A stretch of 53,150 nucleotides of DNA from an uncultured Peptococcaceae bacterium. GTDB taxonomy: Bacteria; Bacillota; Peptococcia; DRI-13; UBA5745. The stretch spans positions 1-53,150 of the forward strand of contig CALMWJ010000134.1 of the NCBI GenBank assembly GCA_937873525.1. The letters run 5' to 3'. Made by a program: the position numbers and the translations under genes. Below, in pieces: positions 45,243-53,150 of the stretch; position 1 is the stretch's first letter; each line of letters begins with the position of its first letter. Below the pieces are notes generated by a model. That model had not been told where the DNA came from and did not search any database. It worked only from the letters and a program-made list of their open reading frames with translations.

Positions 45243-46251
45243 ATGGGTGATGGGAATCGAAAGCAGCTGTGATGAAACGGCTGTGGCGATCCTCAAGGAC
45301 GGGACTACCCTGGCAGCCAATCTGGTGTCGTCCCAGATCCCGATCCACAAAATATATGGCGGGGTGGTTCCGGAAATCGCCTCCCGCCAGCATATGGAGA
45401 CCATCAATCTTCTGATCGACGAAGCCGCCCGGGAAGCAGGGATCACATTGCAGGATCTCGACGGGATCGTCGTGGCCAAAGGACCGGGATTGGTGGGCGC
45501 CTTGCTGGTCGGGGTCAGTACGGCGAAAGCCTTGGCCTATGGCCTCGGGATTCCGCTGCTGGGGATCAATCATATGGAGGGCCATATCTATGCCAACTGG
45601 CTTGCCCATGGGCCTATTGAGTTCCCTGCCCTGGGGCTGATCGTCTCCGGCGGACACACGGCGCTGATGCTGCTGGAAGACTACGGCTGCTACCGTCTTT
45701 TGGGGCAGACCCGGGATGACGCGGCAGGGGAGGCTTTTGACAAAGTGGCCCGGGCGATGAAATTAGGGTATCCGGGCGGGCCGGTCATTGAACAGCTGGC
45801 TGCCCAGGGTGATCCGAAGGCCTTTGATCTGCCCAGAGCCTGGCTCAAGGATCATCCTTGGGAATTCAGCTTCAGCGGCCTGAAGACGGCGGTTCTGAAT
45901 TTGATCAATCAGGCCGCCATGCGGGGCGAGACCATTGACTCCAAGGATATGGCGGCATCCTTCCAAAGCTGTGTGGTGGAGGTGCTGACGGAAAAGACCA
46001 TGGCCGCGGCCGAAGCCTTCAAGGTCACCCGTATCCTGATGGCCGGCGGGGTATCGGCCAATAAAGGACTTCAGGAGTCTCTGGGCCGCCGCTGCCGGGA
46101 GGCAGGGTACACGCTGTATTATCCGTCTCCAGCCTTATGCACCGACAATGCCGCTATGATCGCAGCGGCAGGATATCATCGTTTGAGACAGGGACACCGT
46201 TCCGGATGGGACTTGAATGCCCATCCTTCCCTTGGACTGGAGGAAATGTAA
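45226..46251 (+). CDS. tsaD: tRNA N6-adenosine threonylcarbamoyltransferase TsaD (Gcp/Kae1 family)
   Basis: [13 protein letters not shown] and HMEGH motifs. ATG 45226 overlaps the rimI end. Confidence 0.92.
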
Positions 46252-46381
46252 ACGACGTGTGTTTTTTTAAAAATACAAAGTGCAAACGAATTGCCTGGAA
46301 AACCATGGAACAAACGGAAGATTCCGGATGCGGGTTTTGCAGTTGGCCTGCATAATAGAACGAATTTGCATACAGGTATTC

Positions 46382-46454
46382 TGTGGATAAGGCAATTAAT
46401 ATCCACAAGAATAGGCATTTTATATGTGGATAACCTTGTGGATAGTGTGGATAG
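46382..46454. promoter_or_regulatory. Cluster of five DnaA boxes
   Basis: TGTGGATAA at 46382-46390 and 46425-46433 (perfect complement of TTATCCACA). ATATCCACA at 46399-46407. Abutting TGTGGATAG at 46437-46445 and 46446-46454 (one mismatch each). Confidence 0.8.
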
Positions 46455-46487
46455 GGGCATGCAAATTCTGTATATTGAGGTTCTGTC

Positions 46488-46516
46488 TTGCATTTTCAAG
46501 GAAAAAAGGCTACAAT
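46488..46516 (+). promoter_or_regulatory. Promoter of the uncharacterised 146-aa / flavoprotein operon
   Basis: TTGCAT, 17 nt, TACAAT, starting 34 nt downstream of the last DnaA box. Confidence 0.55.
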
Positions 46517-46618
46517 AATTTTGCATGCGAAATCCGACAGAGGGGTTTCGCGAAAAAACAAGGGTTCCATATCATCAGACCTACTCATCATTGATGAGGG
46601 GAAAAGGGGGAGAAGGAC

Positions 46619-47059
46619 ATGGCAGTGGTTGATCCTTACAAATCCGGTATGTTCAAAAAAGATCCATATTTCAAAAAGAAGGATTGCGAAGGCGAATTGT
46701 GTGTCGTTCTGGACGGCAAATTCGAAGGCAGAAAGCTTCAGCTGATGGTGCCCCGCTCCAGAGCATTCCTTGTGGGAGATATCCATGAACTGATCGCGAC
46801 CGATGAACAGGAAGCTGCGCCCGGCGCAGAGGTCAACCGCATCGCTTACTGGGGATTCTTCGAAGTCGATAAAGCCACGGTGGTTGCCGTCGATGATGAG
46901 ATCACCATCGGTGACAAAGCGGTGGGCCGTATTGCTGGATTCGATGAAACTCATATGCCGAACCATCTGAATGTTGTCATTAAAGTGGAGGAGAGAGTTC
47001 CCGGCGCAGAATTGGGCCTGGAGCTTGGTGACAAAGTTCGCATCGTCAAAAAGGCTTAA
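46619..47059 (+). CDS. Uncharacterised 146-aa soluble protein
   Basis: GGGGGAGAAGG RBS and coding-like composition. I do not recognise a family. The C-terminal half (IGDKAVGRIAGFDETHMPNHLNVVI...GDKVRIV) only faintly recalls PTS EIIA-Gut-type beta-barrels. Confidence 0.7.
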   Translation: MAVVDPYKSGMFKKDPYFKKKDCEGELCVVLDGKFEGRKLQLMVPRSRAFLVGDIHELIATDEQEAAPGAEVNRIAYWGFFEVDKATVVAVDDEITIGDKAVGRIAGFDETHMPNHLNVVIKVEERVPGAELGLELGDKVRIVKKA

Positions 47060-47111
47060 AGGGTTTCTATTGAATACATATTTTTTTATTTTTGAAAGGA
47101 CGGGGTAGGTT

Positions 47112-48392
47112 ATGGTTAAAGTTGTTGTTGTTGGTGGAGGTTGGGCCGGTACCGGCGCTGCGATTTCTGCAGCGAAAGCCGGCGCTAAGGTTACTTTGCT
47201 GGAGAGAACCGACATGCTTCTGGGCACCGGTCTGGTTGGCGGCATCATGCGGAACAATGGCCGTATGGTTGCAACCGAAGAATCGATTGCCATGGGAGCG
47301 CCTGAATTGTTTGACGCTTGCGATGAAACCGCTCGTCACAAAGACTTCGAATTCCCCGGTCACAAACATGCCACCTTATACGATGTGGCGAAGATTGAAC
47401 CCGCTGTCCGCAGAAAACTGGAAGCTGCCGGTGTGGAATACCTCTGTGAAGCTCGCTTCAGCGATGTGGTCATGGATGGCAAAAAAATCGTTGCCGTGAA
47501 AGTTGAAGACGGCAGAACCTTCGAAGCCGACGTTTTCGTTGACGCAACCGGTACGGCTGGTCCCCAGGGCAACTGCGCCAAGTACGGCAATGGCTGCGCC
47601 ATGTGCGTCCTGCGCTGCCCCTCTTACGGACCCCGCGTCAGCTTGGCCGGCAAAGCCGGTGCTGCTGAATTCATGGGCAAGAAAGGCGACGGTTCCTTCG
47701 GCGCCATGTCCGGCTCCTGCAAACTGCACAAAGATTCCCTGGCTGAAGATATTCAGAAAGAACTGAACGAAAAAGGCGTTGCTGTGATCCCCATCCCTGT
47801 GGAACTGCGCAAATCCGGCGTCCTGGCCAAGAAAGCCTGCCAGCAGTACGCCCTGCCTGAATTCGAAGAAAACATCATTCTTCTGGATACCGGCCATGCC
47901 AAATTGATGACCCCCTACTACAAACTGGATCAGCTCCGTCAGGTTCCCGGCTTCGAAAACGCTCGTTTCGAAGATCCCTATGCCGGCGGCAAAGGCAACT
48001 CCATGCGTTACATGGCAGTGTCCTACAGAGACAACTTCCTCAAAGTTGAGGGCGTTGACAACCTGTTCTGCGGCGGCGAAAAAGCCGGCCTGCTGGTTGG
48101 ACACACCGAAGCCATCGTCACCGGCACCCTGGCTGGCCGCAATGCCGTCGCCTTCGCAGCCGGAAAAGAACTGCTGGAACTGCCCACCGAACTGGCCATC
48201 GGCGATGCCATCGACTATGTCGGCAAGCAGATGAGAACCGAAGAAGGCATCAAATTCAAATACACCTTCTCCGGCTCCGTTTACTTCAAACGGATGCAGG
48301 AACTGGGCATGTACACCGCTGACAAAGCCGCTATCCATGCAAAGGTTGAAAAACTGGGCATGACCGGCGTCTACGCTCAGAAACTCTGCTAA
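47112..48392 (+). CDS. GidA/TrmFO-like FAD-dependent protein with an inserted 4-Cys (putative Fe-S) motif
   Basis: N-terminal VVVVGGGWAGTGAA dinucleotide fold. C-terminal LFCGGEKAGLLVGHTEAIVTGTLAGRNA resembles the MnmG/TrmFO signature. C155-x6-C162-x2-C165-x3-C169-P lies at nt 47574..47621. Confidence 0.75.
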   Translation: MVKVVVVGGGWAGTGAAISAAKAGAKVTLLERTDMLLGTGLVGGIMRNNGRMVATEESIAMGAPELFDACDETARHKDFEFPGHKHATLYDVAKIEPAVRRKLEAAGVEYLCEARFSDVVMDGKKIVAVKVEDGRTFEADVFVDATGTAGPQGNCAKYGNGCAMCVLRCPSYGPRVSLAGKAGAAEFMGKKGDGSFGAMSGSCKLHKDSLAEDIQKELNEKGVAVIPIPVELRKSGVLAKKACQQYALPEFEENIILLDTGHAKLMTPYYKLDQLRQVPGFENARFEDPYAGGKGNSMRYMAVSYRDNFLKVEGVDNLFCGGEKAGLLVGHTEAIVTGTLAGRNAVAFAAGKELLELPTELAIGDAIDYVGKQMRTEEGIKFKYTFSGSVYFKRMQELGMYTADKAAIHAKVEKLGMTGVYAQKLC

Positions 48393-48519
48393 ATCCGAAG
48401 GACGGCAATTACCTTAAGATGTTAATATGAATTCACGCTGCCGGCTGATCCTTGTGGTCAGCCGGCAACATGATGAAAATTAACCATATCATATTTTTAA
48501 AGGCGAAAGGATGATTTAC

Positions 48520-48984
48520 ATGTCTCAGATCGAAAAGAAACTCGAAGAAATGGGCCTCAAACTCCCCGCAGTCGCAAAACCGGTTGCAGCTTATGTTCCC
48601 GGCGTCAAAGACGGCAACACCATCTACACTTCCGGTCAAGTGCCCTTCGTTGACGGCGCATTGAAATATGCCGGCCATGTCGGCGCTGAATGCACTCCCG
48701 AAGATGCTTATGAAGCTGCTAAAATCTGCTGTCTGAACTGTCTGGCCATCGTGAAAGACCTGGCTGGCGACCTGGACAACGTGGAACAGATCGTTAAAGT
48801 CGTTGGTTTCGTCAGCAGCGCTGCCGGCTTCAACGGCCAGCCCAAAGTCATCAATGGCGCTTCCGAACTGCTGGGCCAGCTGTTCGGCGACAAAGGCGTT
48901 CATGCCAGAAGCGCAGTGGGCGTCAACGAACTGCCCTTGAACGTTCCTTGCGAAGTTGAGATGATCGTCAAGATCAAAGCCTAA
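48520..48984 (+). CDS. RidA/YjgF/UK114-family protein
   Basis: GNTIYTSGQVP...ARSAVGVNELPLNVPCEVEMIV. ATG 48520 is preferred over 48511 on RBS spacing. Confidence 0.85.
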   Translation: MSQIEKKLEEMGLKLPAVAKPVAAYVPGVKDGNTIYTSGQVPFVDGALKYAGHVGAECTPEDAYEAAKICCLNCLAIVKDLAGDLDNVEQIVKVVGFVSSAAGFNGQPKVINGASELLGQLFGDKGVHARSAVGVNELPLNVPCEVEMIVKIKA

Positions 48985-49012
48985 TCATCCTGAATAGATC
49001 TGGAACAGAAGG

Positions 49013-49042
49013 CCGGAGAGACTTTGTTCTCTCCGGTTTTTT
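49013..49042 (+). terminator. Intrinsic terminator after the RidA gene
   Basis: Stem CCGGAGAGA / TCTCTCCGG with a 6-nt loop, followed by TTTTTT. Confidence 0.85.
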
Positions 49043-49168
49043 GCAGCTTTGGCAAGCTTTTTGCCGTGCAAGAGACCCTCGAATTTCACCAAATGGAGAA
49101 AAAAGATGAAAGACAAAGGGAAAAGAAGCTATAAAGAGATATATTTGAAAAACAGCTGATTACGGCCA

Positions 49169-49197
49169 TTGATTTACGCTCCCTCATTGACTATGAT
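49169..49197 (+). promoter_or_regulatory. Sigma-A promoter of groES-groEL
   Basis: TTGATT, 17 nt, TATGAT, immediately upstream of CIRCE. Confidence 0.65.
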
Positions 49198-49208
49198 AAA
49201 AGAGCAGT

Positions 49209-49235
49209 TTAGCACTCGACGGCATCGAGTGCTAA
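49209..49235. promoter_or_regulatory. CIRCE operator (HrcA binding site)
   Basis: TTAGCACTC-N9-GAGTGCTAA, an exact match to the CIRCE consensus. Confidence 0.95.
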
Positions 49236-49277
49236 TAAAACCTTAAAAAAGGATATTTTGAAGGAGGTCCATATCAT

Positions 49278-49562
49278 ATGAACATCAAACCCCTTGGCGA
49301 AAGACTTTTGGTAAAACCGATCGTTGCCGAACAGAAAACAGCTGGCGGCATTGTTCTGCCTGACACTGCCAAAGAAAAACCCCAGCAGGGCGAAGTCCTG
49401 GCGGTGGGCAGCGGCAAGATGCTGGACAACGGAACCCGCATCCCCATGGAAGTCAAAGTCGGCGATAAAGTCCTCTATTCCAAATATGCCGGTACTGAAA
49501 TCAAAATCGACGACCAGGAACTGCTCATCCTGATGGAACGGGACGTCCACGCGATCCTGTAA
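49278..49562 (+). CDS. groES: Co-chaperonin GroES
   Basis: [14 protein letters not shown]...[12 protein letters not shown]. Confidence 0.97.
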
Positions 49563-51274: not shown

Positions 51275-51312
51275 GAAGCCGCCCGTCAGGACCATTCCTG
51301 ACGGGCGGCTTC
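51275..51312. terminator. Strong hairpin terminator after groEL (possibly bidirectional)
   Basis: Perfect 16-bp stem GAAGCCGCCCGTCAGG / CCTGACGGGCGGCTTC with a 6-nt loop. The flanking T-tracts are weak on both sides. Confidence 0.7.
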
Positions 51313-51377
51313 TGCATATTCGTTGTTTTCTTAAAGGTATGCCGCTATTATGGATTAGTACAACGTCTGTCTTCAGA

Positions 51378-51539
51378 TCAATATGGCGTTAAAGCGTAAA
51401 GGTATGAATAGACCAGGTATAGGATTGCGATGAGAATCAGTGCAATGACGGACAAGATTGTATAGGTATTTTGGCTCTGAACGACTCCAAAAATCAAACC
51501 GATAAGCGAAAGAAGGATTAAACCAATACCGAGAATCAT
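51378..51539 (-). CDS. Unlisted 53-aa two-helix hydrophobic protein
   Basis: My own translation gives MILGIGLILLSLIGLIFGVVQSQNTYTILSVIALILIAILYLVYSYLYALTPY-stop. AAGGAG RBS 9 nt upstream. Below the ORF-track cutoff. Confidence 0.55.
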   Translation of the reverse strand: MILGIGLILLSLIGLIFGVVQSQNTYTILSVIALILIAILYLVYSYLYALTPY

Positions 51540-51694
51540 AAACCAAATCTCCTTTTAAACCAGGTAAGATCGCATTACTGAACCGCTGGAAACGCAGATC
51601 GTTCAGAGGCTATCTTAATTATGAGCCAAGAAACAGCCTAAAACAACAGAAATAAACAACAGCCAGTCGCAGGCCTTTGGCTTGCCATTCGCGC

Positions 51695-51724
51695 TTGACA
51701 CCACAATCCAAAGGATGTTATACT
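51695..51724 (+). promoter_or_regulatory. Near-consensus sigma-A promoter with no downstream ORF
   Basis: TTGACA, 18 nt, TATACT with a TG extended -10 (TGTTATACT). Confidence 0.6.
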
Positions 51725-51730
51725 GCAAAA

Positions 51731-51887
51731 AACAAAAAAGACAGTTCATTTGCACCATCCTGTCTCAAAATAAAACTAGGGCTGATATTTTGTAATTTTG
51801 GATAAGAGAATATGTGTCGCATCACAGAAATATCTTATGAACCAAGATAAAAAAGCAGGCTAAGTTTTATGCCTGCTTTTTTTATTA
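51731..51887 (+). ncRNA. Candidate small RNA (about 155 nt) between promoter and terminator
   Basis: Bracketed by the promoter at 51695..51724 and the terminator at 51849..51887. Only a 12-codon ORF with a poor RBS lies inside. I see no match to a riboswitch class I recognise. Confidence 0.4.
51849..51887. terminator. Intrinsic terminator (A-run / T-run flanked)
   Basis: AAAAAAGCAGGC, 10-nt loop, GCCTGCTTTTTTT. Confidence 0.75.
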
Positions 51888-52054
51888 TTTTCTGAGGCCA
51901 TGGGGGACAAGCGGTGTTTCAGCAGCCGGGATGCTTTTCATGAAACAACAAAGTGCAGAAAGATTGGCAATGCATAGGACCCATAATTAAGGAAACCCTT
52001 TGAGAAGCAGATGAACATACTATTTATGCACCAGATCAGCCACGAAGAGGGGGA

Positions 52055-52258
52055 TTGAACATGAGAAACAGACTTTCTGAAATTCGCAAGAGCCTTAGAG
52101 TGAAACAATACGATCTTGCAGCGGCGCTTGGGGTCACAAGGCAAACCATGTGCGCCATTGAAAAGGGGCACTGGGACCCTTCGATACGATTGGCCTACCG
52201 AATTGCCAAACACTTTGACAAACAGATCGAGGATGTGTTTATTTTTGAAGAAAATTGA
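52055..52258 (+). CDS. Small XRE-family helix-turn-helix transcriptional regulator (67 aa)
   Basis: LSEIRKSLRVKQYDLAAALGVTRQTMCAIEKGHWDPSIRLAYRIAKHF is a classic Cro/C1 HTH. Confidence 0.85.
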   Translation: MNMRNRLSEIRKSLRVKQYDLAAALGVTRQTMCAIEKGHWDPSIRLAYRIAKHFDKQIEDVFIFEEN

Positions 52259-52294
52259 TTCGTATGGCTTCGAGCTATTCACTTCAGCCATACT

Positions 52295-52336
52295 TCAAAG
52301 GCCACGGTCCGACAACGGGCGTGGCCTTTGATATTT
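52295..52336. terminator. Hairpin terminator between the convergent XRE and RNHCP genes
   Basis: Perfect 11-bp stem CAAAGGCCACG / CGTGGCCTTTG, followed by ATATTTT. Confidence 0.65.
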
Positions 52337-52370
52337 TCGATAGACTTAGGCTGAGCATGCCTTGCTGATT

Positions 52371-52796
52371 TTAGCGCAGGCAGCCTTCGCCGCCCATGAG
52401 GGCGGTCAATTCTTCGATGCGCTCCAGGGGGAAGGGCGGGTCGCTCAATGGCTTCAACGCGATGGACATCAGCTTCATCGGGTTGTCGTCCGCAGCGACC
52501 CGGTTTGAACTTAAATGTCCGCACCGCTGGCAGCGATGGATGATTGCCCACTCTCCATTCTTTCTGACCCACACACCGATGGGCTCCATGATGCCGCCGC
52601 AATCGGAGGCACGGTCACCCGGTTTTTGATCCACATGAAGGCTTGAAAGACAGTTCGGGCAATGATTCCGATGCTCGCTTGCGGCGCCCTCCGGAAGGAC
52701 CGGGCGGCCGCATACTTTGCAGGTAAAGCTGTCCTTGCAGGCATGGTTCCGATAGTAACCTTTTGAGTATAGTTTTCTTTTATTTTCTCGATTCAC
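52371..52796 (-). CDS. RNHCP domain-containing zinc-ribbon protein
   Basis: CKVCG...EHRNHCPNC...CQRCGH cysteine pairs. GTG 52796 sits 8 nt after a GGAGG RBS. The ORF-track start at 52811 is a TTG inside or upstream of the RBS. Confidence 0.75.
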   Translation of the reverse strand: MNRENKRKLYSKGYYRNHACKDSFTCKVCGRPVLPEGAASEHRNHCPNCLSSLHVDQKPGDRASDCGGIMEPIGVWVRKNGEWAIIHRCQRCGHLSSNRVAADDNPMKLMSIALKPLSDPPFPLERIEELTALMGGEGCLR

Positions 52797-53150
52797 GAAA
52801 TTAACCTCCAAGTCGTTGATTGATGCAACGGATGGGAGGTCTTGCAGAGATTAGTCGATGCAAGCCTCCCGGCTTGCAACAATCTCCATGGATGTTTTGA
52901 TTTTCAAAAAAATTCTCCTTTTTTCTGCTTTTGCCGTCCAAAGCCGGCTAACAACAGTATAGCAAATGGTGATATAATTTCAATAATCAAAGCTTACGCC
53001 AGGAAAAAAACCGTCTTGATCCATTTTTATAGCCATGTCCCCGCAATAGATCGAAGCGCAAAAGAGGCGGCCGGGAAATTCCCTCATTTGCAACCGCCGG
53101 TTGCGAAGATTCCAAGCCGGCTTTATAGATTGTAAACAGGCAAAGGATGT

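Follow-up and report, generated by a model that had tools for sequence, protein, structure and literature searches.

We analysed a three-gene operon on a 53,150-nucleotide (nt) stretch of DNA from an uncultured Peptococcaceae bacterium (contig CALMWJ010000134.1, positions 1 to 53,150; hereafter the window). All three genes lie on the plus strand. The first (46619..47059) is on the open reading frame (ORF) list as a protein of 146 amino acids (aa) and belongs to the Pfam family DUF6917 (PF21891). The second (47112..48392) encodes a 426-aa flavoprotein with the fold of the flavin adenine dinucleotide (FAD) enzymes MnmG (GidA) and TrmFO and with conserved cysteine residues, and the third (48520..48984) encodes a Rid/YjgF protein. 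The spacer between the first two genes is 52 nt and includes a Shine-Dalgarno sequence. The Rid ORF opens at 48511 (157 aa) and has two in-frame ATG codons, the second of which, at 48520, has the better-placed Shine-Dalgarno sequence and is the start called by gene callers on contigs with identical proteins; from this likely start the protein is 154 aa long. A preliminary description, made from the DNA sequence alone, had placed the three ORFs, the 52-nt gap and a cysteine motif within the flavoprotein (nt 47574-47621) at the positions found here. Antisense to the DUF6917 and flavoprotein genes run two long minus-strand ORFs, 46496-47293 (265 aa) and 47376-48338 (320 aa), which look like by-products of codon composition, with homology favouring the plus-strand genes. 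We regard the three genes as real because both DUF6917 and the flavoprotein have hundreds to thousands of homologs.

The flavoprotein matches the Pfam family GIDA (PF01134) with an E-value of 6e-34 (118 bits against a cut-off of 22.1), and its GGGWAG sequence is a dinucleotide-binding motif of the GxGxxG type, from which FAD binding is predicted. An AlphaFold model has a predicted local distance difference test (pLDDT) score of 82 and a predicted template modelling (TM) score, pTM, of 0.87. Foldseek ranks MnmG structures first for this model (E 1e-17, TMq reaching 0.68) and TrmFO next, which agrees with the assignment to the GidA/TrmFO class made in the preliminary description. However, when normalised to the MnmG target the TM-score is only 0.41-0.57, and the equivalog models that define the characterised enzymes are not matched at their cut-offs. 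The score against the MnmG model TIGR00136 is 32.8 bits versus a cut-off of 524.85, and against the TrmFO models it is 39.1 bits versus 428.65 (TIGR00137) and 36.4 bits versus 262 (NF003739), such that both TIGR00136 and TIGR00137 are missed more than 10-fold. Beyond FAD-domain families the flavoprotein has no Pfam match, and the C-terminal domain of MnmG is absent. In phmmer alignments to 8zu0 and 3cp8 a gap falls at the MnmG residues 'qmscn', where the flavoprotein has LLGTGLVGG; this MSCNP stretch of MnmG contains its conserved catalytic cysteine, taken as Cys47 in Escherichia coli. Residues 149-271 of the flavoprotein, which bear the cysteines, stand in place of the MnmG insertion domain. 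The isoelectric point was uninformative as a clue to nucleic-acid binding, the family median being 6.4.

Within this region lies the motif C155-x6-C162-x2-C165-x3-C169-P170 (47574..47621, plus strand), a putative [4Fe-4S] ligand loop. All 85 aligned homologs keep C155, C162, C165, C169, C203 and C243, and 84 keep C320, in a set that is 60-95% identical to the window protein with a median of 68% across classes. In the cofactor-free AlphaFold model the loop (residues 150-171) is the sole long unplaced stretch, with pLDDT below 50. The conserved loop fits a metal-cluster site, with an iron-sulfur (Fe-S) cluster of the [4Fe-4S] type as the probable occupant. In the spacing C-x6-C-x2-C-x3-C-P the last three cysteines alone fit the ferredoxin-type CxxCxxCxxxCP.

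Homologs of the flavoprotein form a large family of 7418 clusters at 90% identity with E-values up to 1e-5, and the best 120 of these clusters are 68-95% identical to the window protein. A copy is present in at least 584 species genomes, where it is annotated just as 'FAD-dependent oxidoreductase', and the hosts include Peptococcaceae, Thermoanaerobacterales, Heliobacteria, Negativicutes, Oscillospiraceae and Thermotogota. A second paralog, about 60% identical and with the cysteine motif kept, is seen at locus L034 (11471-13278) and also in L024, L027 and L060. In four Thermosediminibacteraceae loci the paralog is directly preceded by a PyrK/NfnA-like protein, a FAD/nicotinamide adenine dinucleotide (NAD) Fe-S protein that matches NCBIfam PRK05802 at 6.6e-115 and has cysteine-rich N- and C-terminal motifs.

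The 146-aa protein had initially been considered unplaceable. It matches DUF6917 over residues 18-142 with an E-value of 4e-46 (156.4 bits against a cut-off of 27), albeit this is a catalogued family without a known function. Among 1.84 billion representative proteins a profile search recovered 370 members, and 27 columns are invariant among 30 diverse members, AGFDETHMPNH included. The AlphaFold2 model is all-beta with a pLDDT of 93.4. Foldseek comparison with the PDB returned no credible structural relative (best E 0.12, TM 0.25), and phmmer and profile searches of the PDB found no solved relative. The third protein matches PF14588 (1e-24, 87.3 bits against 35) and PF01042 (7e-16, 58.8 bits against 27.3), and scores 42 bits against the cut-off of 106.25 for the archetypal RidA model TIGR00004, indicating a Rid-family member outside that subfamily. 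The arginine equivalent to Arg105 of E. coli RidA, a catalytic residue required for imine deaminase activity, is kept, with 'HARSAV' of the window protein aligning to 'PARSCV' in what we take to be the E. coli sequence. DUF6917 and RidA are joined in a single polypeptide in three genomes (L029 3371-4276, L060 3547-4455 and L061 3565-4479), and such fusions occur in both domain orders in the representative protein library. Other partners fused to DUF6917 are GFO/IDH/MocA-type NAD oxidoreductases, an M20 peptidase, an S-adenosylmethionine methyltransferase and DUF1805; representative fusion proteins are P0338, P0350, P0382, P0362 and P0384.

Gene context was counted in 80 species-level loci, a biased sample that consists of the 80 best matches of one scan. 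DUF6917 is found near the flavoprotein in 45 of these loci, in shuffled gene orders, and RidA in 39. A divergent 487-aa fold-type-I pyridoxal phosphate (PLP) enzyme with the motif YSMDKA is present in 43 loci, a vitamin B12-binding protein of ∼605 aa in 41, and a 457-aa polytopic membrane transporter with a weak CitMHS match in 31; an FCD-type regulator is encoded in 34 of 82 non-redundant clustered loci. In 38 of the 45 DUF6917-bearing loci there is a shuffled but conserved cluster with the B12-binding, reactivase and PLP genes, and the members of the cluster besides the trio are the B12-binding enzyme, a KamB-like reactivase, the PLP enzyme, the transporter and the FCD regulator. Gene order varies between Peptococcaceae, Negativicutes and Thermotogota, but the gene set holds together. 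Look-ups begun from DUF6917 found the flavoprotein no more than 5 kb away in three of three cases. Thus the pairing of the two proteins suggested by the window recurs in other genomes, the cysteine motif is conserved among homologs, and searches did not assign both proteins to well-characterised families of known function, leaving the preliminary description sound in each of these respects.

The B12-binding protein has a DxHxxG motif and an N-terminal B12 domain nearest to those of KamE and OraE (profile versus KamE, E 6e-19). At L062 9007-10833 and in its homologs the B12 domain is followed by a highly conserved 460-aa region, for which no Pfam family and no solved structure was matched. The protein may be an undescribed adenosylcobalamin enzyme. 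Its gene is always preceded by a gene of ∼80 aa with a weak OAM_dimer match (E 0.11), and the P-loop reactivase scores 197-209 bits against the KamB-type cut-off of 210. Searches of the cluster partner proteins against the PDB and Pfam gave matches limited to the B12 Rossmann domain and the PLP-lysine region, and public annotations of all cluster proteins are generic. The Pseudothermotoga cluster adds a DapF-like epimerase, and a pyrroline-5-carboxylate (P5C)-reductase-like gene closes the Tepidanaerobacter cluster. Many Clostridia have the flavoprotein and the transporter alone, a pairing that favours a small molecule taken up from outside as the substrate. In Oscillibacter this pair comes after an aminotransferase and two 2-hydroxyacid dehydrogenases, beside a 2-hydroxyacyl-CoA dehydratase locus.

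The trio stands alone in the window, L005-L008, L011 and L019. The tsa genes flank it only in L005-L008, which belong to the window's own lineage, and groES follows it only in L005-L008, L019 and L073. In a neighbour-joining tree without support values, the window clade falls beside Peptococcaceae loci with the full cluster, and the trio looks as if it arose from the larger cluster by reduction or splitting.

Alignment of the leader of the window operon with those of three relatives revealed a conserved block, CTCATCA-N-TGATGAG, which in the window is the palindrome CTCATCATTGATGAG (CTCATC-N3-GATGAG) at 46584..46598, 20 nt before the DUF6917 start codon. Searching for TCATCANTGATGA with up to one mismatch, we found this site to be the sole match in the 53-kb window, and identified 75 sites in the 80 loci compared with a mean of 2.35 in shuffles (maximum 8). 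The sites are concentrated a short way upstream of particular genes, with 24 before DUF6917 (two of these before DUF6917-RidA fusions), 10 before the small gene of the B12 operon, 5 before the transporter gene, 3 before the flavoprotein gene and 2 before the FCD gene. Examples are at L018 3466, L024 1671 and 5894, and L091 6853, 6889, 11110 and 14062. The palindrome is present in 32 of 33 loci that have an FCD gene and absent from 36 of 47 that do not, and it marks the same regulon across phyla. A reading of the palindrome as an RNA hairpin was rejected as the preferred one given that arm mismatches are uncompensated, the centre is variable and the motif follows the presence of the FCD gene. 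The palindrome is therefore designated a putative operator of the FCD regulator. No FCD regulator gene is present within the 53-kb window even though the palindrome is kept, so one would expect the regulator to be encoded in another part of the genome, possibly along with the remainder of the regulon. The full clusters of two Heliobacteria (L062 and L067) have neither palindrome nor FCD gene and are directly preceded by a Rex-type redox-sensing repressor gene (L062 2608-3243, L067 about 2715), which suggests a different, NADH-linked control.

Two promoter candidates precede the operon. The distal site, TTGCAT-17-TACAAT (46488..46516, plus strand), had been called a good promoter, but it agrees with only 8 of 12 consensus positions and was absent from the promoter scan output, being below threshold; its conservation is limited to L005, too near a relative to be informative. 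The proximal -10-like hexamer TATCAT (46570..46575, plus strand) lies 8 nt upstream of the operator palindrome and is a candidate second promoter. In L018, L029, L044 and L059 a TATAAT is followed after 5-8 nt by the palindrome, a geometry that the window TATCAT matches. Between the flavoprotein and RidA genes there is a hairpin (48440..48468, plus strand) with the 10-bp stem and lack of a U-tract previously described, at coordinates one base removed from the 48439-48467 given before, and RNA folding of this intergenic stretch has a z-score of -2.9. An intrinsic terminator follows RidA (49013..49042, plus strand), with a 9-bp G+C-rich stem (49013-49036), a 6-nt loop and TTTTTT. A scan of 46200-49300 with Rfam at E-values up to 1 gave solely a chance-level small RNA match on the terminator, and no leader riboswitch.

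The operon sits, as first reported, downstream of tsaE-tsaB-rimI-tsaD and upstream of groES/groEL, and the stretch that separates it from tsaD contains clustered DnaA-box-like 9-mers (46382..46454). This cluster has five sites in 73 bp, two of which are perfect copies of TTATCCACA and three have one mismatch; it adjoins the operon. Comparable clusters are located upstream of the same trio in both closer and more distant relatives, at L005 5269-5341, L019 5190-5369 and L008 3742-3915, and in Bacillus subtilis DnaA boxes are clustered in the corresponding gcp(tsaD)-ydiF interval. After groEL, a strain with an identical flavoprotein has a phage-type integrase and prophage genes (RecT, YqaJ and helix-turn-helix (HTH) regulators) at L001 14242-21234. 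Genes for an XRE-type HTH protein and an RNHCP-domain protein occupy the same place in the window (51300-53150), and the stretch after groEL looks like a strain-variable insertion site.

Taking these observations together, we propose that the operon is a small-molecule redox module for amino-acid-type catabolism and not for RNA modification, a proposal for which we consider the chances to be about even. It is favoured because the flavoprotein keeps company with a transporter, a ligand-sensing regulator, aminomutase-type B12 and PLP enzymes and an occasional epimerase, because Rid is found fused to DUF6917, and because the flavoprotein can stand alone with a transporter. In the proposed scheme, the 426-aa enzyme would use its MnmG/TrmFO-type fold to hold FAD, and a cysteine cluster in the capping region, probably [4Fe-4S], would couple the flavin to an external electron carrier. 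It would attack an amino or diamino acid oxidatively at a C-N bond, or at the C-C bond next to it, to give an imine or enamine, and the electrons would exit via the cysteine-bound cluster to ferredoxin or a PyrK-like partner. Electron transfer through the flavoprotein is suggested because the cysteine-keeping paralog is preceded by a PyrK/NfnA-like protein. The Rid-family protein would then hydrolyse the imine or enamine to a keto compound and ammonia, as there is precedent in DadA/DadY for a Rid protein beside an FAD amino-acid dehydrogenase that removes the imine product (PMC9714295). DUF6917 may act on the same intermediate or product, or may be an accessory subunit. The operon would be repressed at CTCATC-N3-GATGAG by an FCD-type regulator encoded elsewhere in the genome, and the trio would represent the reduced form of a pathway with an adenosylcobalamin-type enzyme, a reactivase, a PLP enzyme and a transporter. 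More tentatively, and as a possibility we hold with some doubt, the trio could be the redox/imine core of an undescribed anaerobic adenosylcobalamin/PLP catabolic pathway found in several hundred Bacillota species and at least one member of Thermotogota.

Several points weigh against a catabolic redox function. MnmG and TrmFO, the nearest characterised relatives, perform flavin/folate methylene transfer and not amine oxidation. The open-access literature yielded no characterised homolog, structure or paper for the flavoprotein subfamily, DUF6917 or the cluster. The flavoprotein has no match to Fer4 Pfam models, and its sequence is compatible with Fe-S or zinc alike at the cysteine site. A Pfam census of 80 neighbours of loci with the flavoprotein only, or with flavoprotein and transporter, was heterogeneous and revealed no recurrent partner. 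RidA is absent from some full clusters, such as those of the Negativicutes L090 and L091, and imine hydrolysis may accordingly be dispensable. Finally, no B12, PLP, transporter or FCD regulator gene was found in the 53-kb window, so the role of the trio alone is an extrapolation from the larger clusters.

The same module might instead run as a reductase. The PLP and B12 enzymes would supply an imine, enamine or enoate, which the flavoprotein would reduce with low-potential electrons arriving via the Fe-S cluster, and the module would then serve as an electron sink in fermentation. All hosts are strict anaerobes, the paralog follows a partner linked to NAD(P)H, the Tepidanaerobacter cluster ends with a P5C-reductase-like gene and the Oscillibacter genes are beside those of a reductive branch. 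A Rex gene also lies directly upstream of the cluster in Heliobacteria, but this adjacency is limited to two loci, and RidA together with the DUF6917-RidA fusions points to imine hydrolysis; on balance we think a reductase unlikely. Retention of the MnmG/TrmFO chemistry itself, a flavin-N5 iminium with methylene-tetrahydrofolate, but applied to a small molecule such that an amino acid has a one-carbon unit transferred or removed, would be in keeping with superfamily membership and with hosts that include one-carbon-metabolising acetogens, syntrophs and Formimonas warabiya (strain DCMF in the genome record). However, the cluster has no recurrent folate-related gene, the catalytic cysteine positions of TrmFO and MnmG are unaligned, and such chemistry leaves the Fe-S motif and RidA unexplained, making it improbable.

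The preliminary description had raised nucleic-acid modification as one possibility beside a redox role, which can be read as an Fe-S/flavin enzyme that acts on tRNA or ribosomal RNA and is tied to the neighbouring genes for N6-threonylcarbamoyladenosine (t6A). The nearest folds are indeed MnmG and TrmFO, the C-terminal sequence LFCGGEKAG..GHTEA parallels the motif of those enzymes, the window operon comes after tsaEBD-rimI, and a median identity of 68% across classes is housekeeping-like. Nevertheless, the adjacency to tsa is specific to one lineage, and the partners that are conserved are metabolic, namely the transporter, the ligand-sensing FCD regulator, the B12 and PLP enzymes and RidA. 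The equivalog scores (39 bits against 429 for TIGR00137 and 33 against 525 for TIGR00136), the missing C-terminal domain of MnmG and deletion of the Cys47 stretch all speak against that role, as do the occurrence of at least two paralogs in many genomes and confinement of the family to a subset of anaerobes. The link to t6A is therefore not sustained, and we judge an RNA-modifying role very improbable. Lowest in our estimation, and scarcely to be credited, is a role for the flavoprotein in reducing cobalamin or otherwise maintaining the B12 enzyme, with no catabolic activity of its own, comparable to PduS, itself an Fe-S flavoprotein. A B12-binding enzyme and KamB-like reactivase are alongside in 41 of 80 loci. 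However, at least 36 of 80 loci lack a nearby B12 gene, including the window and the loci of flavoprotein plus transporter, and the fold of PduS is unrelated.

What we rate as new here is a flavoprotein of MnmG/TrmFO fold with a conserved cysteine cluster in a metabolic setting. Conservation in the family is unusually high, since members from several classes of anaerobes are 60-95% identical to the window protein. Should the flavoprotein prove to be a metabolic Fe-S enzyme, the MnmG/TrmFO fold extends beyond RNA modification. On the more tentative reading of an undescribed pathway, small-molecule chemistry with an added [4Fe-4S] centre would be demonstrated for the first time in this superfamily, and DUF6917 would be an enzyme of new fold and a working partner of RidA. 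The associated proteins hint at a B12/PLP-dependent route of amino-acid fermentation that has gone unrecognised, in anaerobes of the gut (Oscillospiraceae) as well as syntrophic, phototrophic (Heliobacteria) and thermophilic ones. The operator and ligand-sensing regulator offer a direct experimental handle on the substrate: were the genes confirmed as a regulon under CTCATC-N3-GATGAG and the FCD regulator, the ligand of the regulator would reveal the substrate. The locus also carries a caution, in that a fold plus a local neighbourhood is poor ground for inferring tRNA modification.

Comparison with characterised systems places the flavoprotein closest to MnmG, which uses FAD, NADH and methylene-tetrahydrofolate in 5-carboxymethylaminomethyl (cmnm5) synthesis at U34 of tRNA. 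The two have in common the GIDA FAD domain and a C-terminal G-x-x-x-G...G-x-x-E-A motif, and MnmG structures are the best structural matches (3cp8, 2zxi and 3ces; E 1e-17 to 1e-15, TMq 0.55-0.68). Identity is 15-18%, however, and MnmG is about 620 aa compared with 426 aa. The flavoprotein is without the C-terminal MnmE/tRNA-binding domain, has the cysteine-rich region in place of the insertion domain, lacks the Cys47 stretch, and is encoded in a metabolic context without mnmE. TrmFO and RlmFO, the folate/FAD-dependent 5-methyluridine methyltransferases of about 430 aa, are more similar in size and share the fold (Foldseek E 1e-12), and residues 275-373 of the flavoprotein match the TrmFO model. 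Yet TMq to TrmFO is only 0.44-0.48 and the gene context differs. TrmFO is not known to have an Fe-S-type cysteine motif.

In operon logic the nearest parallels are found among amino-acid dehydrogenases. DauA is reportedly encoded with a Rid protein in the same arrangement of flavin dehydrogenase plus Rid. DadA belongs to the DAO family and does not have the GidA fold. DadA-DadY of Pseudomonas follows the same logic, the imine from a flavin dehydrogenase being passed to hydrolysis by a co-encoded Rid protein (PMC9714295). The hosts of that pair are aerobes, however, and DUF6917, the Cys4 motif, and B12 or PLP partners are lacking there.

The wider cluster recalls the aminomutases. Outside the window the trio is embedded with a small subunit, a B12 subunit and a KamB-like protein, as in D-ornithine 4,5-aminomutase (OraS/OraE) and lysine 5,6-aminomutase (KamDE/KamB), and sometimes with an amino-acid epimerase as well. 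In contrast to KamE and OraE, the cluster protein has its B12 domain at the N-terminus, followed by 460 aa without a solved counterpart, and by our reading of the alignment it has no lysine where KamE and OraE have the PLP-binding one (taken as Lys144-beta and Lys629). In comparison with OraE/KamDE-type fermentation, the Fe-S flavoprotein would carry out the oxidation in place of an NAD(P) dehydrogenase; genes of OraE/KamDE type are absent from the window. Dihydroorotate dehydrogenase B, NfnAB and sulfide dehydrogenase provide a further parallel as two-subunit Fe-S flavoenzymes with a PyrK/NfnA-type electron-transfer partner, given that the gene immediately before the paralog encodes a PRK05802-type FAD/NAD protein with a 2Fe-2S motif. 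The catalytic subunit differs in fold from the enzymes that have PyrK/NfnA-type partners, and neither the window nor most of the loci have the partner gene. Nevertheless, by analogy with these enzymes, the pairing suggests an electron route that would run from NAD(P)H through Fe-S and FAD to the substrate.

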